From: Candidatus Bathyarchaeia archaeon | GTDB lineage: Archaea; Thermoproteota; Bathyarchaeia; Hecatellales; Hecatellaceae | DNA length: 64,000 nucleotides | NCBI GenBank assembly: GCA_038883335.1 | Contig: JAVZMI010000006.1 | Coordinates: forward strand, 16,811 to 80,810 | Direction: 5' to 3' | Shown: one piece after another, positions 37,073 through 61,269 of the stretch | Numbering within the stretch: the stretch's first letter is position 1 | How the letters are laid out: each line of letters starts with the position of its first letter | The notes under the pieces: generated by a model | Database searches by the model: none | Told to the model about the DNA's origin: nothing | Seen by the model: the letters and a program-made list of their open reading frames with translations, nothing else | Made by a program: the position numbers and the translations under genes

Positions 37073-38566
<1,494 letters not shown>

Positions 38567-38745
38567 AAGAAAACGACCACAATGGCTGGGGCGAAAGTAG
38601 TGGCAAACCCACAAGAGCAATAGATGCGATTCCGGAGCGAAAGCTTCGGGATTAAGGGCAGAGTGGACCTTTAACGGGTTCGCGGTGAATGCCGTGCAGA
38701 GTTGCACAAACTGGGTGTGGCTTCAAAGGATAGGCCCGACATGAG

Positions 38746-41792
<3,047 letters not shown>

Positions 41793-41848
41793 CGGGCTGA
41801 TATTTGAGGCTGCGCCCAGGTGAAATGACTCTGCACGGTGTTCTCTAA

Positions 41849-49372: not shown

Positions 49373-49449
49373 GCCCAGGTAGCTCAGCTTGGGAGAGCGC
49401 CCGGCTGAAGACCGGGTTGTCGCAGGTTCAAGTCCTGCCCTGGGCACCA
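49373..49449 (+). tRNA. tRNA-Phe (anticodon GAA), with a genomically encoded 3' CCA
   Basis: Hand-folded cloverleaf. Acceptor stem GCCCAGG/CCTGGGC, D arm GCTC-AGCTTGGGA-GAGC, anticodon stem CCCGG/CCGGG with loop CTGAAGA, variable loop TTGTC, T arm GCAGG-TTCAAGT-CCTGC, discriminator A, then CCA. Confidence 0.9.
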
Positions 49450-49620: not shown

Positions 49621-51033
49621 ATGAGTTTAAAACGTACCAAGACTGGTATTAAGGGTTTAGACTCTTATACTGGCGGCTTTACAGAGGGCAGCCTAATTAT
49701 GCTGTCGGGCGAAGCTGGAACCGGTAAAACAATTTTTTCAGCCGAATTTATATATCGCGGCGCAGAGAACGGTGAGAACGGCGTATATCTCAGCTTCGCT
49801 GAGACGCGCGAGGTATTTTATAGTAACATGCGTAGCTTCGGCTGGGATTTTGAGAGGCTGGAAAAGGAGGGTAAATTCAAGTTTTTAGAAACGCCATCAA
49901 TGCGTGAGGAGGGGGTCTCCTCCATGCTGGAGATGGTTCTAGATGAAGTTCGCAGCTTAGGAGCGAAGAGACTCGCGGTAGACTCGTTCTCTGCATTGGC
50001 TCAAGCCTTTAAGGAGCGTATAGACGTCCGCATAGTGCTCCATACGGTTCTAGACAAAATAATCAAGCAAGCAAAGTGTACCACGGTTCTAATCGTCGAA
50101 ATACCCAAGGGCACAAACCAGTTAGGGCTAGGTATGGAGGAGTTTGTCGCAGACTGCATAATCAAACTTTCGAGGCGAGAGTTTGAGGGACAGCTGCTTA
50201 GAGAGTTAGAGTTACTGAAGCTTCGCGGAGCTGAGATCAGACAGTCTAAAATCGCCTTCACCCTCAAAGGCGGATTCAAAATGTTAACCCCTCTGACCTC
50301 GGAAGGCGATATAGAAGAGCCCAAGAGGTATAGACCCATTCCCAACACTGAAACTCACATCTCATCGGGCGTTCGAGACTTGGACGAGATTATTGGGGGA
50401 GGAGCTAGGATTGGAACCTATAATCTATTTGAGGTTGGTAGAGATGTACCCTTCTCCATAACCCGCCTCGTACGGTCGATGATCTATAACTGCGTCAGCC
50501 AAGACTATGGTGTAGTCATCCTTCCGCCGAGAGGAGTAAGTGCACACAGAGTTAAAGCCCGTATGGCACCCATGCTAGGGGATGAAGCTTTCGAGCACTA
50601 CGTTAGAATAGTTGATTTCGGCGAGGAGGCTAAGGCTCCCTATATTGTGAATTTGGAGGGTAAATCCATCCGTGAAGACTTTGAACTGTTCTGGGGTGCA
50701 ACCTCCAAGCTTAGAGAAAAGACAGGCAAGCCTGTGTTTTCCGTTGTTGGATTCGACTCTCTTGAGTACATGTATGGCCGAGATGAGGCATTGAAGATCC
50801 TCGGCCGAGATGTTACACTTACCAGAAACTTTAACGATGTGAGGCTTAACATCATAAGACCGACTATCACCCTTGCGGATCAACTCAGAGCCCTAGCTGA
50901 CATCTACTTCAAAGTCGACGAGATCGACGGAGCTATATTTCTACGCGGTGTGAAACCAAAGACGCCTTTATACAGTTTCAATGTGTCAACATGTCAGGGC
51001 GTATCTGAGGTGAAACTTATACCGGTGGTATAG
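49621..51033 (+). CDS. KaiC-like/RecA-superfamily ATPase; the second domain lacks a P-loop
   Basis: The N-terminal domain has IKGLDSYTGGFTEGSLIMLSGEAGTGKT (Walker A) and TTVLIVEIP (Walker B-like). The second half starts with a KaiC-like ISSGVRDLDEIIGGG but has no GxxGxGKT. Confidence 0.75.
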   Translation: MSLKRTKTGIKGLDSYTGGFTEGSLIMLSGEAGTGKTIFSAEFIYRGAENGENGVYLSFAETREVFYSNMRSFGWDFERLEKEGKFKFLETPSMREEGVSSMLEMVLDEVRSLGAKRLAVDSFSALAQAFKERIDVRIVLHTVLDKIIKQAKCTTVLIVEIPKGTNQLGLGMEEFVADCIIKLSRREFEGQLLRELELLKLRGAEIRQSKIAFTLKGGFKMLTPLTSEGDIEEPKRYRPIPNTETHISSGVRDLDEIIGGGARIGTYNLFEVGRDVPFSITRLVRSMIYNCVSQDYGVVILPPRGVSAHRVKARMAPMLGDEAFEHYVRIVDFGEEAKAPYIVNLEGKSIREDFELFWGATSKLREKTGKPVFSVVGFDSLEYMYGRDEALKILGRDVTLTRNFNDVRLNIIRPTITLADQLRALADIYFKVDEIDGAIFLRGVKPKTPLYSFNVSTCQGVSEVKLIPVV

Positions 51034-52940: not shown

Positions 52941-53291
52941 CTATGCCCCCCCAGACCCCTTCGCCTCCTCAGAAAGCTTCCTCAACACTTCACCCATAAA
53001 CTTCTTACCTCCCTCCAGCACCCAGCGGCCCCTATCAGTTATCTCATAGTAGACCCTGCTCGGCTTAGTTGAAAGGGGTTTGCCTTCTCTCTTCCTAATC
53101 AACCCCTCCCTTGCCATCTTGTAAAGTACGACGTACGTTGTGACCGTAGCTACCTGTATCTCATATTTCACTTTAAGCGCTCTAGCCAGCTCATAAGCGT
53201 ACATAGGCTGTCTCACAAGTTCTGTAAGTATGTAGAGCCAGAGGTTCTCCTTCGTGAGTTTCGCCACAAACCTATTGTAAGTCATAGCCAC
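52941..53291 (-). CDS. PadR-family transcriptional regulator
   Basis: 116 aa. LYILTELVRQPMYAYELARALK...VTTYVVLYKMAREGLI...YYEITDRG. Confidence 0.8.
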   Translation of the reverse strand: MAMTYNRFVAKLTKENLWLYILTELVRQPMYAYELARALKVKYEIQVATVTTYVVLYKMAREGLIRKREGKPLSTKPSRVYYEITDRGRWVLEGGKKFMGEVLRKLSEEAKGSGGA

Positions 53292-53295
53292 CAGC

Positions 53296-54159
53296 TTACC
53301 TATTTAGCGCGCGATGTGAAATCAGAGCGCCCGCCACTATGAAAAGAACCGTATAGGCGACTAGAACTGCAAAGTTCACGGTGAGACTCATCAAAGTCGC
53401 GGGATCCATAAATTCGCTCAGGATGAAAGTACGCACATTATCAACCGCGTAGGTGATTGGGTTGAAGGCAGCTATCATCTGAAGCCAAGCTGGCATCTGT
53501 CTTACTGGGAGGAGGGCACTACTAGCGAACATGAGAGGCAGGTTAAGGAGGTTTGATATGGCGATCACGGTCTCATGGCTCGTTATCATGGTAGCTATTC
53601 CCACAAAGAGGGCTGAGAGCCCTAGACCCAATAAAATGAGCACCGAAATTATGCCTAAGAGGTTTAGGGCGCCGAAGTTACTGCTCACCTTAAGTCCACC
53701 TGCAAACGCCACCGATAGTAGTATAATGGACTGAATAGCTCCCTTCGTCAAGCTGGCTAAGACCTTTGACATAAAGATAGAGCTTCGAGGTATGGGCGCT
53801 ACAAGAAACTTGTTGAGGTAACCCAGCCTCCTATCCCAGACTACACTCATCCCACTGAACATAGAGGTGAACATGATGATTATGACCAGCATCCCTCCAG
53901 CCATGAATGTGAAGTAATCCGCGGTTCCAAACAGAGAGACAACCGCACCCTCCAGAGTTCGTTGGAGTTCAGCCGCTACAGCCGCGGGGAGACCAGCCAG
54001 AGAGTCGGGGGGAATTGTTATCATCTTGGAGAGGTTCATAGCTCTACCGAAGAGCAGGAGCCAAATTATAGGTTGGAAGAGGGTTGTGAAGATTAAGAGG
54101 GGGGTCCTATACCATTTCTTGAGTTCCCTGCTAGTCAGGGCGAGAGTTCCCTCCATCAC
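53296..54159 (-). CDS. ABC-2-type transporter permease
   Basis: 287 aa, about 6 TM segments, 4-nt overlap with the upstream ATPase gene. Confidence 0.8.
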   Translation of the reverse strand: MMEGTLALTSRELKKWYRTPLLIFTTLFQPIIWLLLFGRAMNLSKMITIPPDSLAGLPAAVAAELQRTLEGAVVSLFGTADYFTFMAGGMLVIIIMFTSMFSGMSVVWDRRLGYLNKFLVAPIPRSSIFMSKVLASLTKGAIQSIILLSVAFAGGLKVSSNFGALNLLGIISVLILLGLGLSALFVGIATMITSHETVIAISNLLNLPLMFASSALLPVRQMPAWLQMIAAFNPITYAVDNVRTFILSEFMDPATLMSLTVNFAVLVAYTVLFIVAGALISHRALNR

Positions 54160-55196
54160 GATGCCCTAAGCCTCCTCATCACAAACCTCGTCCTAAAGAA
54201 GTCCTCTGCCCCCTGCTGCTCATCCCGAAGCGATCTACCTGTATACTCCAAGAACACCTGGTCTAAGCTTGGTTTCACAAGCGAAACACGCTTCACCTGA
54301 ACCCCTGCGCCGAGCAACTTCCCCAGTATAAGGGGTAGAGCCTCCTCACCTCTGCTAACCTTAACTCTATAGACGCCACCTACTTTTTTTACCTCGTGAA
54401 CGTTGATAATCTCAGCAAAGGATACCGAAATCTCAGGGCGATCATCCGCTAAGCCTACCTCGATAACATCCCCGCCGAGGCTGTCCTTCAGTTCGCTGGG
54501 GGTCCCCGCTTTTACAATCTGCCCATGGTCTATTATTGCTATCCTGTCGCAGAGTTGATCTGCCTCATCCATATAGTGAGTAGTTAAGAAGATAGTGATC
54601 CCCTCCTCACGGTTGAGCTTGTGGATGTAATCCCAGATTATTGCACGGGTTTGGACGTCAAGCCCCAAAGTTGGCTCGTCAAGAAAGAGAAGCCTAGGGC
54701 GATGTATTAGGCCACCTATGAGCTCAAGGCGTTTCCGCATACCACCGGAATACGTCTTGACAACCCTTCTAGCAAAGTCCCTCAAGCCGACCAAGTCTAG
54801 AAGCTCATTTATCCGCGCCTCAGCCTCTCTTCCAGAAAGCCTATACAGTTTCGCTTGAAGCATTAGGTTGTCGACGCCAGTCAGGTCGTCGTCGACTGTA
54901 AGTTCCTGAGGAACTAAACCTATTAGAGACCTAACTTTTTCAGGGTGCGATCTAACGTCAACCCCGCAAACAGATGCTCTGCCCTCAGTTGGCTTGGTAA
55001 GGGTGGTTAGCATCTTAATGGTAGTAGTCTTACCTGCACCGTTAGGCCCTAGAAACCCGAAGACCTCCCCATCCTCGACGCTGAAAGATATGTGATTCAC
55101 TGCAAAGTGGGTCTTATTATAGATCTTAGTCAGACCCTCAGCCTCTATGACCCTCAGCCTCTGCCACACTCCAACCAGTGAAAGCCACTCGTGCAA
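54156..55196 (-). CDS. ABC transporter ATP-binding protein (DrrA/ABC-2 exporter type)
   Basis: Walker A is GPNGAGKTT. Signature is YSGGMRKRL. Walker B is LLFLDEPT. H-loop is TTHYMDEA. Confidence 0.85.
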   Translation of the reverse strand: MHEWLSLVGVWQRLRVIEAEGLTKIYNKTHFAVNHISFSVEDGEVFGFLGPNGAGKTTTIKMLTTLTKPTEGRASVCGVDVRSHPEKVRSLIGLVPQELTVDDDLTGVDNLMLQAKLYRLSGREAEARINELLDLVGLRDFARRVVKTYSGGMRKRLELIGGLIHRPRLLFLDEPTLGLDVQTRAIIWDYIHKLNREEGITIFLTTHYMDEADQLCDRIAIIDHGQIVKAGTPSELKDSLGGDVIEVGLADDRPEISVSFAEIINVHEVKKVGGVYRVKVSRGEEALPLILGKLLGAGVQVKRVSLVKPSLDQVFLEYTGRSLRDEQQGAEDFFRTRFVMRRLRAS

Positions 55197-55596
55197 GCTT
55201 TAAATGTAATACCCGGCATACCGCCGAGCCGCTCTAAAGTGAACGATACAGCGAGACACCTAAACATCAGCTTAGTTCTTTGAGAGACCACGTCTCACAC
55301 AAGCTTTTCGGCTGTTTCTGTTTTTCTGTTGGGTAAAGATCATTTTGCCTATAGATAAATGATTACGAGACACAGACTACAGCATACTGGGGACAGCTAT
55401 ACAACAAACCTTTTTATTGATGGAGCTCAAATTTTTAGTTCGGGCTGTGACGAGTCTGGCCCGGCTGAACTGGTAATGATGTAGATCTTGAGTTCCGAGC
55501 CCTCCATAACTATTAGCCTCGACGCAGCGCCCTAAACTCAGGATGACCACGCGGCCACTAGGATCGATACTTATTTATCCTTCCGACGGTTAAAAG

Positions 55597-58479
55597 ATGT
55601 GCAGGTCCTCTCTCATGGCCTCAACTGCGAAGAATTATTCACTCCACCTTGTAGGCTTGGGTGGGGCAGGTAGCAACATCTTAGAAGCGTTCTTTAAAAG
55701 TTCTAAGATCTTCCAATTTTTACAGCTCAGAGGCGTCAAACTTACGTGCTTAGCGCTGGATGTCGCTGATCATGATATCCTGCGGCTTATTCAAGCTTAT
55801 GAGGAGTTTAAAGAAGAATTACGGGTGCGCCACATCCCGGCTGATAAGGCCTACCTTAATGCGCGGTCAGTTAAATTTCCTACGCCACAAGCTATGTTCG
55901 AGTATATACAGAAGCTTCCAGAGTACATTAAACTCGAGGGTGGAAATCCGCCGGAGAACTACAAGCCATGGCTCTCCTCAGCAGTAGAGATCCCTCCTCT
56001 GTCTGGGGGTGTAGCTAGGAGGAGAGCCCTCGCTAAAGCCATCTACGGTCTCAACTACCACTATCTTCGGCTATTGGACAGCTACATTGAGAACTTCAAA
56101 GAGAATGTATCGTCTTCTATTCTTCAGCCTCTCATCTTTGTGTTCTTTGGAGTGGGGGGTGGCAGTGGTAGCGGAATGGTAATGGACTTTGTCCGCCACC
56201 TCCGAAAGAAGATAGGGACAGGCTTTCCCATAATAGGGGTGGGAATACTGCCCTGTCAGGGCGATGACCACAGAGCGAAGGGCGCCTCTGCATATGCTGC
56301 CATAAACGAGTTAGAACTACTTATAGAGGGAGGCAAGAATAAGATAATCAGGGAGACCTACGGGGAGACTTATGGAAATCCTTTCACAGCCTTTCTAATG
56401 ATGCCTCTAGCTCCGCCCTACAAGAAGACTGGCAACCTCCTTGAGGCTCAAAGGTTTTTCGACGAGGCAGTAGTAGACATTGTGCTGAACACGATGAAGT
56501 TTGACATGGCTGACATGTTAGATGGAATTGGGGCGAACCTAGATTATGGCGAGAATGCCATTCACATCATGACCACGCTACGTGTAACCTATCCAATCCT
56601 CGAGCATATAGCCCTAGCTAAACTCTACCTAGAGAAACTGTCCAAGCTCAAGGTCTTGAGAAGGGAGCGCATGGAGATATTAGCTGGCTCTGAGGAGAAG
56701 GGATTCGGCGGGCTTGAGCAACTCATAAACCTATGTTACGCGGAGTTAGCTGAGATCTTCTGGCGGCTACAGCGTTCGAGGGGGGCATACGATCCAGCTA
56801 AGAAGGATGAGAGTATAAGAGGTTTCATCTACAGCGACAAATCCGTTGAATCCAATTATAGAATTCAAATACGGGGGCTGGAGGAAGCTATTCGAGACTC
56901 AGTGGACGAGATTGTAACACCAGTACTCGCTATAGGTTTAGAGGCACCTGAGGCGACGCCTGAGGCTAGGTTGAGGACGCACATCAGCCAGATAATAGAT
57001 CACACGCGGCATGTAGCTTCAACATACCTAACTTTCCATGAAGATATTTCAAACCTCATAAACGAATTAAATAGTAACGTTACGGCTACTCAACGTTTAA
57101 CCTTCAGAGAAAGGACACAGTTAAACGATTTCCTAGAGTTTGTGAAGTTCATAGAAAAATACATCTCAGTGCTTAAGAGATATGTAGAGACAAAGGTTCT
57201 CGCCGACAAGTTGGTGACAGAGCTTAGGACAGGTGAAGCCGCCGAGTGGAAGGATCAGCTTGGGAACATCGCCGAGAAAATCGCCAATGTAGAACTTAAA
57301 CTCATATTCAACACGCTGACCGGACTCTTCAGGTCGGGCAAGGCTGAAATTTCAACTATAGAATCCTACAGTAAGGAAGTTTCCAGTTTGACGAAGACGC
57401 TGAGAGAAGACCTCTCACAGACGGCAACGCTGAGGGATCAACTAGCAGCGGAGATTAAAAACTCTGAGGAGGAGATTGAAACCTCTTTAAAGGAGGCTGA
57501 GAGGTTCAGCGTCAGAGTATTTCGCCCTAGCAAAGGGAAGAAGCTGAAAGAGAAGGCCGCCTCTCTGCAGAAGGAAGTCGAAGATAAGAAGACAAGCCTC
57601 CAAGAAGTAGCGACCTATATCTCGAGTGTTGAGGGGAGGGTGAAAGAGTACACAATAATTGAGAGAAGGGTTGACATCGACTCGGATTACCGTAGACTGT
57701 TGATGAACATAGTCGACATCGACAACCAATACTACGAGAAACTGTCAGAGGTTAGCAGGGATCGAGGATACTATGATAGAGTAATGGACATAACAGAGGG
57801 AGAGAAGTTACGGATAATGAGCAAGATTCTACAGGAAGAAGAGTATGCCCTGACGAGGGAGAACATACTCAAAGAGATAATCGACCTTAAACGGTTTAGA
57901 GAGTGCCTCATCGGCGCTATAAGAGTTCTCCAGGTTCCAAGTAGCATAGGCGTCGAGAGCAGCTACAAGAGCGACTACATGTGGGTGACCGTGGTTGCTC
58001 CTGAAGGGATATGGGATCCCGAGTTGGATGCAGAACTCAAAGCTACACTAGCCGGGTACCTCTCAACTGGCGCAGCAAGAAGCATACACGTGTCGCATGT
58101 AGAGGCTGAAGATCCATGGACGATAAGAATACTCTTGGTCGCAGGTAAGGCTAGCAAGAAGGATCTGGACTTGTACTTGGAGATGAAGTCACTGTACGAG
58201 CAGGCTTCTTACAGCGACAAGATTCTAGCACACTCTCTACTCTTAGAGCACGGCATACTCGCAGCTGAGGCCCCAGTATATATCCCTCAGCAACGTTTGG
58301 CGAGCAAACCAGTTGGCACACCCTCGATCTCTGTATGCCCAAACTGCAAGAGCACAAATACGTCCATGCTCAAGGAGTGGAATATGTCAACTAAGAGTGG
58401 TAAAGGCCTACCTTTACATGTTGCATTATATAACTGTAGCGAGTGCAATAAAAAGTTCAGAGTCGTTACAAAGGTTTAG
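55597..58479 (+). CDS. 960-aa tubulin/FtsZ-superfamily GTPase-like protein fused to a long helical region, a globular domain and a C-terminal zinc ribbon
   Basis: Motifs seen: VGLGGAGSN (aa 19-27, T1-like), SGGVARRRALAKA (T3-like), GVGGGSGSG (aa 185-193, nt 56149..56175, T4 signature-like), LPCQGDDHRAKGASAYAAINEL (T5/H5-like), NTMKFDMADM (aa 298-307, T7-like). Then about 430 aa of charged helical sequence, followed by CPNC-x29-CSEC at the C-terminus. Confidence 0.7.
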   Translation: MCRSSLMASTAKNYSLHLVGLGGAGSNILEAFFKSSKIFQFLQLRGVKLTCLALDVADHDILRLIQAYEEFKEELRVRHIPADKAYLNARSVKFPTPQAMFEYIQKLPEYIKLEGGNPPENYKPWLSSAVEIPPLSGGVARRRALAKAIYGLNYHYLRLLDSYIENFKENVSSSILQPLIFVFFGVGGGSGSGMVMDFVRHLRKKIGTGFPIIGVGILPCQGDDHRAKGASAYAAINELELLIEGGKNKIIRETYGETYGNPFTAFLMMPLAPPYKKTGNLLEAQRFFDEAVVDIVLNTMKFDMADMLDGIGANLDYGENAIHIMTTLRVTYPILEHIALAKLYLEKLSKLKVLRRERMEILAGSEEKGFGGLEQLINLCYAELAEIFWRLQRSRGAYDPAKKDESIRGFIYSDKSVESNYRIQIRGLEEAIRDSVDEIVTPVLAIGLEAPEATPEARLRTHISQIIDHTRHVASTYLTFHEDISNLINELNSNVTATQRLTFRERTQLNDFLEFVKFIEKYISVLKRYVETKVLADKLVTELRTGEAAEWKDQLGNIAEKIANVELKLIFNTLTGLFRSGKAEISTIESYSKEVSSLTKTLREDLSQTATLRDQLAAEIKNSEEEIETSLKEAERFSVRVFRPSKGKKLKEKAASLQKEVEDKKTSLQEVATYISSVEGRVKEYTIIERRVDIDSDYRRLLMNIVDIDNQYYEKLSEVSRDRGYYDRVMDITEGEKLRIMSKILQEEEYALTRENILKEIIDLKRFRECLIGAIRVLQVPSSIGVESSYKSDYMWVTVVAPEGIWDPELDAELKATLAGYLSTGAARSIHVSHVEAEDPWTIRILLVAGKASKKDLDLYLEMKSLYEQASYSDKILAHSLLLEHGILAAEAPVYIPQQRLASKPVGTPSISVCPNCKSTNTSMLKEWNMSTKSGKGLPLHVALYNCSECNKKFRVVTKV

Positions 58480-58608
58480 TCCAGCTTTTTTCCTAGTTGC
58501 TAATTGAGCTATCGCGTCCTTAATAGTTTTACCCGCCTCTATAGTTTTTATCTTCAAAAGAAGACATAAACTAAGTAGCACAGTGAAAGTATTTTGAGGC
58601 GAGCAGAC

Positions 58609-59826
58609 ATGGTGGGCTCTATAGTGGAGGAGGAACTCTCAAAGGCTTCCATCATAAAAGATGAGGCAAAACTCTCCCTCGACTATGTGCCAACCCGCCT
58701 CCCCCACAGGGAAGAAGAGTTAAGGACATTGGTGCGTCTTTTCAGTTCGCTCGTTAAGACACCCGGCAAAATTGCTCCTAAGGTTATCATTCGCGGCAGC
58801 ATCGGAACTGGGAAGACTGCCCTCTCGAAACGGTTTGGAGAGGATTTCGAAAAATATGTGAGAAAAAGGGGCCTCAACCTTCGTTTTATTCATGTAAACT
58901 GCAGAGAGGAGGGAAGTTTCTTTAACATCTTGAAGGGCATAATCACCAACACCTTTGAGCACGGCTTTCCCCAAAGAGGCTACTCCTCACAGGAACTCTT
59001 AAACATCCTGCTAGAGGTCTTAGACCGCAATAGGGCTTACATCCTAATCGCCCTCGACGAATTGGAGGACTTGATAAGAAAGGAAGGCGCCGACCCGCTC
59101 TTCTGTCTCACCCGGGTCCAAGAGAGCAGACCGCCAAGTGCACAACAGAGAGTCTCTCTATTATGTATATTTAGGGACCCAGAGTGCGAAGAAGTTTACA
59201 GGCTGCTTGACAAGAGCACCCAGAGCACCCTAGGAGGAAACGTAGTCTTACTTGACAAGTACACCGTAGACCAGCTGAGGGATATTCTGGAGGACAGAGT
59301 CAAGGAGGCATTCCTAGAAGACACCGTACTCCCGGAGTCCTTAGAGTTAATCGCCGATCTGGCTGGCAAGCATGGCGATGCACGGTTTGCAATTGAACTC
59401 CTATGGCTGAGCGGGAAACTCGCCGATGCATCAAACACCTCTAAACTACTGCCTGAGCATGTGAGATACGCCCAGACACGAACTCACCCGACACTGAGGG
59501 TTGAGGACTTGAAACTCCTTAGACTACATGAGAAACTACTACTCCTCGCCGTAGCGAGGGGGTTAAGGAGCGAGGGAACAGCTTATCTAAGCTTCGGCTA
59601 CGTTAAGGAAAGCTACAGGTTGGTATGTGAAGAGTACAGAGAGAAGCCGCGGGCACATACACAAGTTTGGAAGTATATGAAGAGCCTTCAAGTGGCGGGT
59701 CTACTCTCGGCGAAGATCTCTGGGAAAGGTCAGAGAGGCAAGACTACCTTGATTGGCCTCTATGCTCCCTCTGAGAAGCTTGAGGAGACACTCTACAAAT
59801 TGTTGGAGGTTAAGAGGCATGGGTAG
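58609..59826 (+). CDS. orc1: Orc1/Cdc6 replication initiator
   Basis: Motifs seen: LSLDYVPTRLPHREEEL, Walker A GSIGTGKTA, Walker B ILIALDELE, sensor and C-terminal wHTH (LLLLAVARG...YMKSLQVAGLL). I take the ATG at 58609; the ORF track offers a TTG at 58594. Confidence 0.9.
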   Translation: MVGSIVEEELSKASIIKDEAKLSLDYVPTRLPHREEELRTLVRLFSSLVKTPGKIAPKVIIRGSIGTGKTALSKRFGEDFEKYVRKRGLNLRFIHVNCREEGSFFNILKGIITNTFEHGFPQRGYSSQELLNILLEVLDRNRAYILIALDELEDLIRKEGADPLFCLTRVQESRPPSAQQRVSLLCIFRDPECEEVYRLLDKSTQSTLGGNVVLLDKYTVDQLRDILEDRVKEAFLEDTVLPESLELIADLAGKHGDARFAIELLWLSGKLADASNTSKLLPEHVRYAQTRTHPTLRVEDLKLLRLHEKLLLLAVARGLRSEGTAYLSFGYVKESYRLVCEEYREKPRAHTQVWKYMKSLQVAGLLSAKISGKGQRGKTTLIGLYAPSEKLEETLYKLLEVKRHG

Positions 59827-60100
59827 TGGAGAGCTAAACCTTGAGGATGTCATTACCTCCAAGGGAAGGTTCAAGATCCTAAAACTTCTCGCAGAGGTTG
59901 GAGAGCTTAACATCACGGAGATTACGAGAAAAACCAATATCGCATACACTTCAGCTGAGAGACATCTCACACTTTTGAAGATGGCAGGTTTGGTTGAGGA
60001 GAAAGTCTTCGGGAAAAAAATAAGGATCTTCAGGTTTAAGGATGAGAACAGGAGATGCCGGTTGCTGAAACGTTTCTTCGAAGAATGCCAGTCACTATAA
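59819..60100 (+). CDS. Small ArsR-like winged-helix protein, translationally coupled to orc1
   Basis: MGSGELNLEDVITSKGRFKILKLLAEVGELNITEITRKTNIAYTSAERHLTLLKMAGLVEEKVFGK. Its ATG (59819) overlaps the orc1 stop (ATGGGTAG). Confidence 0.65.
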   Translation: MGSGELNLEDVITSKGRFKILKLLAEVGELNITEITRKTNIAYTSAERHLTLLKMAGLVEEKVFGKKIRIFRFKDENRRCRLLKRFFEECQSL

Positions 60101-60188
60101 ATGAGTAAGCCATCATCTACCTTAAATACTCATTAGCTGAACTCGGGCTGGAGGATTGGGAGTGTTAGCTCCAAAATGAGACCTCAAA

Positions 60189-60386
60189 TCATCGGCGTCT
60201 AAGCTGCCCCCCGAACCTCCCATGCTCCCTTACATTTTGGCCAGCCGCCCTCTTCAAGGTAACCCGTTTCTCATAGTTCCTCCTCACCCTGAAACGTGGG
60301 ATGGGCGAAGCTCTCTCAGCGGACTGCAGCTTGGGAGTCTGGGAGCGTACCTTTCCAGCCTTTGTGAGTGAACCGTGCGTAGGCAT
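60189..60386 (-). CDS. rps30e: Ribosomal protein S30e
   Basis: [20 protein letters not shown]... is the typical S30e N-terminus. The protein is 65 aa and basic. Confidence 0.8.
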
Positions 60387-60444
60387 GTATGTCGCCTAAG
60401 CTAATACTCAAAGCCCACTACTTAAATTTTAGGGCGAGAAGCTT

Positions 60445-61269
60445 CTAGACCGGTACTGATTTACCTGTAGCATCTCTCTTCCAGAAGCCGAACTCCTCGA
60501 TTTTACTGAGGAGCACACCTGAAAATACGGGGCCATCCCGACAAACCCTATACTTGCCCAACATGCAACTACCACATATGCCAACCCCACATTTCATATA
60601 ACGCTCGAGACTCACCTGAACTGGGATACTATATCTGACTGCGAGATCTACAACCTCTTTCAGCATGAGTTCAGAGCCGCAGGCATATACTTGTTTGATG
60701 CGGCGGCGCTCTTCCAGCACCTTTGCTAAGGTTTGGGTCACGACGCCCTTCAACCCGTATGTCCCATCCTCGGTGGTCGCTATAACTTCACCGACTCTCT
60801 TGAAATTCCTCAAGAAGAGGAGTTCAGTCTTAGTTTTCGCTCCAGCTAGGATGGTTACCTTGGCGCCTGCGTTTGCGAGATTCTCTGCTAGGGGTAGAAG
60901 TGGCGATAGACCAGTCCCTCCGCCGACGATCAGAGATGCACCCCGCTGCATGCCGAAGCCATTCCCGTAGGGACCTCTTACTCCTATCACCGCTTCCCCC
61001 CTCAACTGATGTAGTGCCTCCGTAGTCTCACCAACCTTCTTAACAGCGAAAGATGCCACCCCCCTCCTCCAATCCATTAAGGTGAGACTCATCGGAACCT
61101 CTTCAGCACCGGGGACCCAAACCATGATGAACTGCCCAGGCTTCGCCTCAGCGCAGAGTTGATCCTTGAAGGTGAAAACTTTGACGTACTCACTCTCACT
61201 TCTAACAGCCCGAAGTCTAACCATTCTAGGCCTGTTCGGTGTTGAAGGTAGTTGGCTTCCATTGTTCAC
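60445..61269 (-). CDS. pyrK: Dihydroorotate dehydrogenase electron-transfer subunit PyrK
   Basis: FAD/NAD-binding layout (GQFIMVW, RGPYGNGF, GGGTGLSPL) and a C-terminal 2Fe-2S motif (CGVGICGSCMLGKYRVCRDGPVF). It overlaps pyrD by 4 nt. Confidence 0.85.
   Translation of the reverse strand: MNNGSQLPSTPNRPRMVRLRAVRSESEYVKVFTFKDQLCAEAKPGQFIMVWVPGAEEVPMSLTLMDWRRGVASFAVKKVGETTEALHQLRGEAVIGVRGPYGNGFGMQRGASLIVGGGTGLSPLLPLAENLANAGAKVTILAGAKTKTELLFLRNFKRVGEVIATTEDGTYGLKGVVTQTLAKVLEERRRIKQVYACGSELMLKEVVDLAVRYSIPVQVSLERYMKCGVGICGSCMLGKYRVCRDGPVFSGVLLSKIEEFGFWKRDATGKSVPV

Follow-up and report, generated by a model that had tools for sequence, protein, structure and literature searches.

The locus described here raises the question of whether a very long archaeal tubulin-like protein is a complete member of the tubulin/FtsZ superfamily, for which assembly into filaments could be predicted, or a GTPase head put to some other use. 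The window, meaning the whole stretch of DNA that was analysed, comprises 64,000 nt of a Candidatus Bathyarchaeia archaeon (contig JAVZMI010000006.1, positions 16,811–80,810, forward strand). The gene in question was taken from the list of open reading frames (ORFs) as an intact ORF of 960 codons plus stop at 55597..58479 on the + strand; all features within it lie on this strand, and residues of its product, termed the giant protein below, are given in the 960-amino-acid (aa) numbering that starts at 55597. The original prediction, made from the letters alone, had placed a tubulin/FtsZ GTPase domain in the first ~330 aa, followed by a long helical region, a ~130-aa globular segment and a terminal zinc ribbon. 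The reading favoured here, which is considered probable at a moderate level of confidence, is that the giant protein has a complete tubulin/FtsZ fold with a lateral stalk, that it is a solitary, ribbon-tagged paralogue within a conserved TACK-archaeal/Chloroflexota branch of the FtsZl1 family, and that it would assemble head-to-tail in a GTP-dependent manner.

Superfamily membership of the head was supported by profiles and by predicted structure. Both Pfam Tubulin (PF00091; 34.1 bits against a cut-off of 33, E = 4e-8) and Pfam Tubulin_2 (PF13809; 33.1 bits against a cut-off of 27, E = 5e-8) matched aa 19–241, so that both profile cut-offs were passed, the first of them being one proposed for checking aa 1–340. 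An AlphaFold2 model computed from 102 homologues had a mean predicted local distance difference test score (pLDDT) of 89.9 and a predicted template modelling score (pTM) of 0.76. When this model was compared with the PDB using Foldseek, as had also been suggested, the top 50 matches were all CetZ, FtsZ, TubZ or tubulin, with alignments of ~330 columns and CetZ 3zid as the best match (E = 1e-6). The family profile (spliced head) searched against PDB sequences matched FtsZ, CetZ and tubulin only, in regions confined to T1 and T4; a search of the PDB with the single sequence of the giant protein gave one weak CetZ match, at T4. A search of a viral structure library returned two phage tubulins only, besides generic zinc-ribbon and coiled-coil noise, and the NCBIfam scan of the giant protein gave no family match. 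Canonical FtsZ was excluded, with TIGR00065 scores of 11.4–14.5 bits against an equivalog cut-off of 295.2, in agreement with what had been proposed from the sequence; the giant protein is not expected to be a division protein.

The N-terminal GTP-binding domain (aa 14–299, 55636..56493) comprises S1–S6 and the core helix H7, as delimited by Pfam, Foldseek and the AlphaFold2 model (pLDDT mostly >90). Its motifs were all located by motif lookup, in the order in which they had first been quoted: VGLGGAGSN at aa 19–27 (55651–55677), of which GLGGAGSN (aa 20–27) is T1; the T3-like block PPLSGGVARRRALAKA at 56002–56040, where SGGVARRRALAKA occupies aa 136–148; the T4 signature GVGGGSGSG at aa 185–193 (56149–56175); the T5-like LPCQGDD block at 56248–56313, where LPCQGDDHRAKGASAYAAINEL occupies aa 218–239; and NTMKFDMADM at aa 298–307. 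The assignment of the first ~330 aa to the GTPase domain, with T1, T4 and T7 in the correct order, thus stands, with Pfam, AlphaFold2 and Foldseek in agreement. Family-specific inserts are present between T1 and T4. Across the 102 aligned sequences 25 columns are invariant, including the T3-like, T5-like and T7-like motifs; the set contains LDVAD, W125, the PPLxGGxxRxR block, LPCxGDD, FD302–303 and three tryptophans of the C-terminal domain described below (W796, W806 and W841). The invariant residues of the N-domain are D55, A57, W125, P133, P134, G137, G138, R141, R143, P219, C220 and D223, and within GGGSGSG (aa 187–193) the T4 residues G187, G188, G189, G191, S192 and G193 are conserved in at least 90% of the sequences.

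The T7-like loop and H8 (aa 298–310, NTMKFDMADMLDG, 56488..56526) were defined from conservation and the AlphaFold2 model. FDMAD (aa 302–306) directly follows H7 (H7 281–299, loop 300–303, H8 304–310 in the model); F302 and D303 are invariant, while A305 and D306 are conserved in at least 90% of the sequences. Judged by sequence and model position, D303 and D306 are the counterparts of the DxAD of the FtsZ NxDFAD catalytic 'synergy' loop. The aspartates of this loop in FtsZ act across the polymer interface.

A canonical superfamily member would continue from here into a C-terminal domain, which had at first been reported as missing. Contrary to that view, an FtsZ-type C-terminal domain is very probably present but split, with S7 at aa 322–331 and S8-H10-S9-S10 at aa 795–852. 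The order of elements in the AlphaFold2 model is H7, T7 loop, H8, S7, an all-helical stretch (334–784), a strand (795–801), a helix (808–821) and two strands (830–836 and 842–852), which would correspond to the C-domain of FtsZ (S7-H9-S8-H10-S9-S10), H9 being replaced by ~460 residues. S7, the first C-domain strand (56560..56589), is supported by the model, by conservation and by collinearity with S7 of short relatives, and is followed by an invariant Y332 and a nearly invariant P333. The rest of the domain (aa 791–895, 57967..58281) was delimited by the model and by hidden Markov model (HMM) homology to the C-domain of the short relatives; it contains S8 (795–801), H10 (808–821), S9 (830–836), S10 (842–852), two helices and the end motif AHSLLLEHG, which is family-wide. 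This is the part that had been described as a ~130-aa globular segment: the segment itself was recovered, and it can now be identified as an alpha/beta domain.

The short relatives that carry this argument are natural Tubulin_2-type proteins of ~470–560 aa (P0146, P0148, P0149, P0161 and others), whose N- and C-domains are homologous to and collinear with the head of the giant; they are, in effect, the giant without the stalk, and lack the ~460-aa insertion. In an exhaustive search, short relatives of 473–561 aa gave two blocks of match to the family HMM (profile positions ~5–290 and ~775–887), separated by only 70–95 residues. The C-domain HMM of the giant matched the C-domain of the short relatives with independent E-values (iE) down to 2e-12, and alignment of the spliced giant head with the short family by hhalign gave a probability of 100%, E = 1.3e-68 and 416 collinear columns that run across the splice junction. 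An AlphaFold2 model of the short relative P0148 (pTM 0.81, pLDDT 72.8) shows the elements S7-H9-S8-H10-S9-S10, and its alignments with entire chains of FtsZ, CetZ and TubZ cover 450–530 columns (E ~1e-10 to 1e-11, TMt up to 0.64). From these alignments and this model, aa 791–895 of the giant protein are homologous to a domain in the position of the FtsZ C-domain. Against the classical FtsZl1 proteins of ~1100 aa, the C-domain HMM showed collinear likeness at the level of motifs only (PW-hhhhh-G and H-LLL-G; iE 0.05–0.3, not significant). The genomic context of the short relatives differs from that of the giants: they occur as tandem paralogues with CobW, CN_hydrolase and AAA genes, as at L094:4142-7686, where P0148 and its neighbour (510 aa and 561 aa) stand side by side. 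Such tandem paralogues could form a heterodimeric tubulin-like pair. P0177 was noted as a further short relative, and several of the group end in the conserved Cys-rich motif CEPSxRFxGxxGECIWGCACW.

The place of H9, between S7 and S8, is taken by an all-helical region of ~457 aa (aa 334–790, 56596..57966; AlphaFold2, pLDDT mostly 85–95), in keeping with the long helical region that had been noticed after the GTPase domain. At least 14 helices were predicted between aa 334 and 784, the longest of which (581–639 and 644–691) form a long helical hairpin of 59 + 48 residues; heptad-like (3.5-residue) periodicity reached z > 2 at aa 470–511, 568–637 and 652–721. This stalk is absent from the short relatives that match both of its flanks, and among the folded parts it is the least conserved. 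The H9/M-loop face is lateral in tubulin protofilaments, and an insertion at this face should, by analogy, not block longitudinal contacts.

Together, the T7 DxAD match and the complete fold lead to the prediction of a polymerisation-coupled GTPase activity. The following mechanism is proposed. GTP would bind at T1/T4 of the head, and heads would associate head-to-tail, so that each GTPase site would be completed by the T7 aspartates of the adjoining subunit, as in FtsZ and tubulin. From the protofilament the helical stalks would project sideways, and they might mediate lateral pairing or the binding of partners. The basic zinc ribbon on its flexible linker could tether the polymer to a cargo or an anchor, much as the C-terminal tails do in FtsZ and TubZ. 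The anchor in most relatives would presumably be the co-encoded membrane proteins; in the lineage of the window this membrane-protein linkage would have been lost and the ribbon gained.

The family to which such proteins belong was described in 2010 by Makarova & Koonin as FtsZl1, from a range of bacteria and a few archaea, with a predicted role in membrane remodelling (PMC2875224). Its architecture was given as an FtsZ-like head with T1–T4 inserts, an extended helical/coiled-coil region and a C-terminal domain, in proteins of 900–1100 aa; the C-terminal domain was described as 'mostly alpha-helical' and without similarity to FtsZ/tubulin C-domains, and the gene partners listed were vWA, P-loop GTPase, Ser/Thr kinase and OmpA (PMC2875224). 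Pfam Tubulin_2 (PF13809) corresponds to the FtsZl1 group. With the PF13809 cut-off passed and the tripartite architecture recovered in the AlphaFold2 model, the giant protein is, on profile and model evidence, a member of the FtsZl1/Tubulin_2 family, on a peripheral branch: its Tubulin_2 score is 33 bits as compared with 60–89 bits in classical members; the strong Tubulin_2 member P0143 (89 bits) matched the family HMM of the window protein over its full length (E = 2e-76), and classical Tubulin_2 proteins of ~1100 aa matched the N-domain (E = 1e-16 to 1e-21). Membership of a poorly characterised FtsZ-like family had been named as one possibility in the original prediction and is borne out. 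The architecture, which had been put forward as possibly novel, is not new, since the same architecture was published for FtsZl1 in 2010 (PMC2875224). The giant shares with FtsZl1 the divergent tubulin/FtsZ head with T1–T4 inserts, the helical region and the C-terminal domain. It differs in that its T7 is clearly recognisable, its C-domain is alpha/beta and FtsZ-like rather than 'mostly alpha-helical', and its branch has two membrane proteins and another tubulin-like protein as partners instead of vWA, GTPase, kinase and OmpA; the window copy, in addition, has no partners and bears a zinc ribbon. None of the neighbours (vWA, GTPase, kinase, OmpA) that are typical of FtsZl1, though no strict criterion for it, adjoins the window gene or occurs among the recurrent neighbour clusters of 91 loci, and no experimental study of FtsZl1 or of this subfamily was found in literature searches.

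Comparison with the better known members of the superfamily sets the giant apart in each case. Among solved structures, the GTPase head is matched best, in structure and in sequence, by CetZ (3zid, 4b46, 4b45), with an identity of 13–15% and sequence similarity detectable only near T1 and T4; CetZ has ~350–400 aa and a contiguous C-domain, and lacks both the helical insertion and the zinc ribbon. TubZ and PhuZ are structural matches whose C-terminal extension attaches cargo or neighbouring subunits, which offers a functional analogy for the ribbon tail; they are plasmid- or phage-borne and accompanied by a TubR-like adaptor and centromere repeats, whereas the giant gene is chromosomal and its product completely different in size and architecture. 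With canonical FtsZ the giant shares the fold, the T1/T4/T7 logic and the C-domain topology, and it differs by the large inserts, the split C-domain and a TIGR00065 score far under the cut-off.

The distribution of the family was established by several searches. A protein search recovered 329 homologues, the majority of full length (880–950 aa), and relatives carry the NCBI name 'tubulin-like domain-containing protein'; an exhaustive profile search over 1.84 billion representatives yielded 283 matches only, of which ~14 are full-length 50%-identity clusters. Among species-representative genomes at least 191 loci encode a giant, in Bathyarchaeia, Nitrososphaeria/Nitrosopumilales and Dehalococcoidia/Chloroflexota; all are from metagenome-assembled genomes (MAGs), and some are on megabase-scale scaffolds. 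Neighbourhoods were counted at 91 loci. Directly upstream of the giant gene, 78 of the 91 encode a ~319-aa protein with a signal peptide, an ectodomain and one transmembrane helix (A319); 74 encode a ~790-aa protein with 6–10 transmembrane helices and a soluble domain (D788); and 70 encode a second tubulin-like protein of 380–460 aa (C422), some versions of which match PF00091 and the gene for which is on the opposite strand in Bathyarchaeia. Soluble proteins of ~310–330 aa often accompany the giant gene as well. Loci of the cluster type are L003, L005, L013–L091 and L096 (for example L003:7045-15455 and L096:6086-13654). Those partner proteins that were scanned with Pfam gave no significant match besides the tubulin domain of the second tubulin-like protein, and no description of this cluster was found in the literature searched.

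The window copy stands outside this arrangement. HMMs of the five partner families were searched against all window ORFs of at least 50 aa and matched nothing at E <= 10. The partner-less copies (window, L007, L001, L008/9, L010/11 and L012) form one clade in a neighbour-joining tree, in which a Nitrososphaeria-type clade with the cluster is sister to them and the ribbon has its origin among the partner-less copies. The two types are paralogues, since L012 (orphan) and L016 (cluster) come from the same MAG. Elsewhere in the tree, five-gene clusters that include an extra E326 gene from Dehalococcoidia/Chloroflexota (L017–L045) and from Nitrososphaeria (L027–L035, L064) are sister groups, which suggests a transfer of the entire cluster between the domains. 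Two contigs, L066 (binned as Sulfotelmatobacter) and L070 (Limnocylindrales), fall within the Bathyarchaeia clade, probably through mis-binning.

The loss of all cluster partners in a paralogous clade, together with the MAG that retains both types, would also be expected of a decaying or functionless duplicate of a cluster-type gene. This was weighed with the constraint on the gene, for which the ratio of non-synonymous to synonymous differences (pN/pS) was computed. The overall pN/pS against its orthologues is 0.18–0.19, indicating purifying selection. By part, and against two orthologues in a comparison where synonymous sites are near saturation, the values are 0.09–0.12 for the N-domain, 0.16–0.19 for the C-domain, 0.24–0.25 for the stalk, which is thus still constrained, 0.25–0.32 for the ribbon and 0.35–0.61 for the linker; all folded parts accordingly fall within 0.09–0.32. 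The ORF is intact, all 25 family-invariant residues are kept in the window copy, and a conserved four-Cys module has been newly gained. Decay is scarcely credible on these data, and since the invariant residues are all kept and purifying selection acts in every domain, the gene appears functional as far as can be judged from its sequence.

A number of observations weigh against the complete, polymerising fold. Both Pfam scores barely exceed their cut-offs. The N-domain carries large inserts and an atypical invariant Arg-rich T3-like block, and these could alter nucleotide handling or the longitudinal interface. The confidence of the P0148 model is moderate (pLDDT 72.8, from 9 sequences), and the packing of aa 795–852 onto S7 and the N-domain is, for the giant itself, proposed from homology and topology. 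Finally, the T6–H7 region and the C-domain of FtsZl1 were not alignable in 2010, and non-polymerising behaviour was left open (PMC2875224).

In an alternative account the giant protein is a non-polymerising, dynamin-like or switch GTPase, whose head dimerises or cycles with GTP while the stalk does mechanical or scaffolding work at a membrane or a complex. The combination of a GTPase head with a long helical hairpin stalk would suit it, as would the clustering of the relatives with polytopic and single-pass membrane proteins, and an invariant T3-like block so rich in Arg is unusual in FtsZ or tubulin; the 2010 paper on FtsZl1, which left the absence of filaments open, proposed membrane remodelling (PMC2875224). 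The conservation of the T7 DxAD speaks against this account, because in FtsZ and tubulin it is used only across the polymer interface. A complete FtsZ-type C-domain also appears to be retained, the insertion would be lateral and not longitudinal if FtsZ/tubulin topology applies, and the window protein itself has no hydrophobic segment and no membrane partner nearby. The dynamin-like account is rated as unlikely, and a filament-forming subunit with a lateral stalk is preferred.

The C-terminal tail is the part in which the window copy departs from most of its relatives. Behind a disordered linker (aa 896–910, 58282..58326; pLDDT <50), which is the least constrained part of the gene, follows a basic zinc-ribbon module (aa 911–960, 58327..58476) with Cys 914, 917, 947 and 950, as defined by motif and AlphaFold2 model. 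CPNC (aa 914–917) and CSEC (aa 947–950) are 29 residues apart, as first reported for the CxxC-x29-CxxC tail, and the two CxxC knuckles flank a small predicted beta-sheet (strands 922–930, 940–947 and 953–959), the arrangement expected of a zinc ribbon; the terminal four-Cys ribbon recognised earlier is thus recovered as three predicted strands behind a disordered linker. The tail (aa 896–960) has an isoelectric point (pI) of 9.8. No specific zinc-ribbon family was matched significantly, the Pfam matches being weak and generic (E >= 0.012). Among the 102 aligned members 7 have a ribbon, with four Cys in 3 and CxxC...HC in 4, and the others end ~45 residues earlier, shortly past a conserved SFLLEHG motif. 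The ribbon is a clade-specific add-on and no feature of the family; its presence in only 7 of 102 aligned relatives does not agree with its earlier treatment as a defining nucleic-acid module. Short N-terminal Cys/His motifs (CPxxH...CxxC) were observed in C422 proteins of Nitrososphaeria and Dehalococcoidia (for example L002:6042-7376, L003:14079-15455 and L022:14105-15463); the partner-less giants have instead gained the C-terminal CxxC...CxxC ribbon, with a spacing unlike that of the C422 motif.

Downstream of the giant gene, an Orc1/Cdc6 gene (Cdc6_lid and Cdc6_C; 58594–59826, +) starts after 115 bp in the same orientation. It is followed by an ArsR-type helix-turn-helix (HTH) gene (59753–60100, +), the listed ORF of which overlaps the end of orc1, so that its true start is probably later (the protein has 85 aa in L095); PyrK and PyrD are also encoded downstream. 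Upstream lies a divergent three-gene unit on the - strand (52941–55196) with a PadR-family regulator, an ABC-2 permease and a DrrA-like ABC ATPase, separated from the giant gene by an intergenic region of 400 bp. The DrrA-like ATPase is the upstream neighbour in the closest relative L095 too.

This setting bears on a TubZ-type role in DNA positioning or segregation, in which the ribbon would bind DNA or a DNA-bound adaptor near the origin and the polymer would move or position the chromosome. The gene is 115 bp upstream of, and co-oriented with, Orc1/Cdc6, the same gene order is found in L095, the basic tail sits on a flexible linker, and TubZ is among the structural matches. L095 (75% identity), however, is the only relative to share the Orc1/Cdc6 adjacency, and its synteny with the window extends to either side of the gene, as its close relationship would lead one to expect; the adjacency is not found in the other ribbon-bearing or orphan relatives L007, L008/9, L001, L010 and L012. 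Linkage to Orc1/Cdc6 as a clue to function was dropped for this lack of conservation among the orphan relatives. A search of 54900–60600 for origin-, ORB- (origin recognition box) or centromere-like repeats found only short repeats at chance level, and no such array and no adaptor gene surround the giant gene, whose neighbours are the ABC transporter and Orc1/Cdc6; the ribbon, moreover, has generic, non-significant matches only. The DNA-positioning role raised in the original prediction, weakly supported by an adjacency that is not conserved, is judged to be distinctly improbable. A combined version, in which a new kind of cytomotive filament subunit, a complete tubulin/FtsZ fold with a lateral coiled-coil arm of ~460 residues, was uncoupled in this Bathyarchaeia-like lineage from an ancestral membrane machinery and retargeted by its ribbon to nucleic acid near the origin, and which would amount to chromosomal tubulin-based DNA positioning in archaea, is given slightly less credence still.

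The wider window shows a chromosomal setting. A complete archaeal 16S–23S rRNA operon (37073–41799, +; G+C 0.57 against ~0.48 elsewhere in the window) was found, and from this operon, orc1 and pyrD the window is taken to be chromosomal. A KaiC-family ATPase of 470 aa with a GvpD 'basic region 2' domain (49621–51033, +) lies just downstream of a tRNA gene (49373–49446). Giant coiled-coil nucleoside triphosphatases in variable neighbourhoods are often parts of conflict systems, and an anti-virus or conflict function was considered on this ground: PADLOC gave weak matches in the helical region to LmuB and Ppl, the best at E = 7.6e-4, orphan copies occur in variable contexts, one of them beside a PIN-domain gene, and the distribution between the domains is patchy. 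These PADLOC matches are confined to the coiled-coil region and are at a compositional level; the protein has neither a nuclease nor an effector domain, and the gene is outside a defence island, in a window that is chromosomal. Most relatives belong to one stable membrane-protein cluster, and selection on the gene is strongly purifying, without hypervariable parts. A defence function is accordingly regarded as very improbable.

With regard to the start of the gene, the true start codon is probably ATG 55615 (M7), which would give a protein of 954 aa; M7 is favoured because the database copy P0001 has 954 aa and the N-termini of close homologues align to M7. A TATA-like box, TTATTTAT, was read from the sequence at 55571..55578, ~37 nt upstream of ATG 55615. 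Its position would place the start of transcription near 55601, between the two ATGs and downstream of the ATG at 55597.

The family and its architecture were already known; the probable split C-domain, the conserved partner cluster, the solitary clade and the clade-specific ribbon are new here. Within the tubulin/FtsZ superfamily no branch is more divergent or less understood than the FtsZl1-type proteins, which have so far been taken to lack both the C-terminal domain and the T7 region, the parts that enable polymerisation-coupled GTP hydrolysis. If the split-domain reading is true, the tubulin fold of the giants is complete and is interrupted by a very large lateral insertion, and filament formation becomes a concrete, testable prediction; the finding would refine the description of 2010, in which no similarity to FtsZ/tubulin C-domains was seen. 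The analysis also defines a conserved system of two tubulin-like and two membrane proteins in Bathyarchaeia, ammonia-oxidising Nitrososphaeria and Dehalococcoidia, which are abundant uncultured lineages, and bacteria and archaea appear to have exchanged this multi-gene system. The copy in the window, derived, partner-less and ribbon-tagged, may represent a natural experiment in the retargeting of a polymer.

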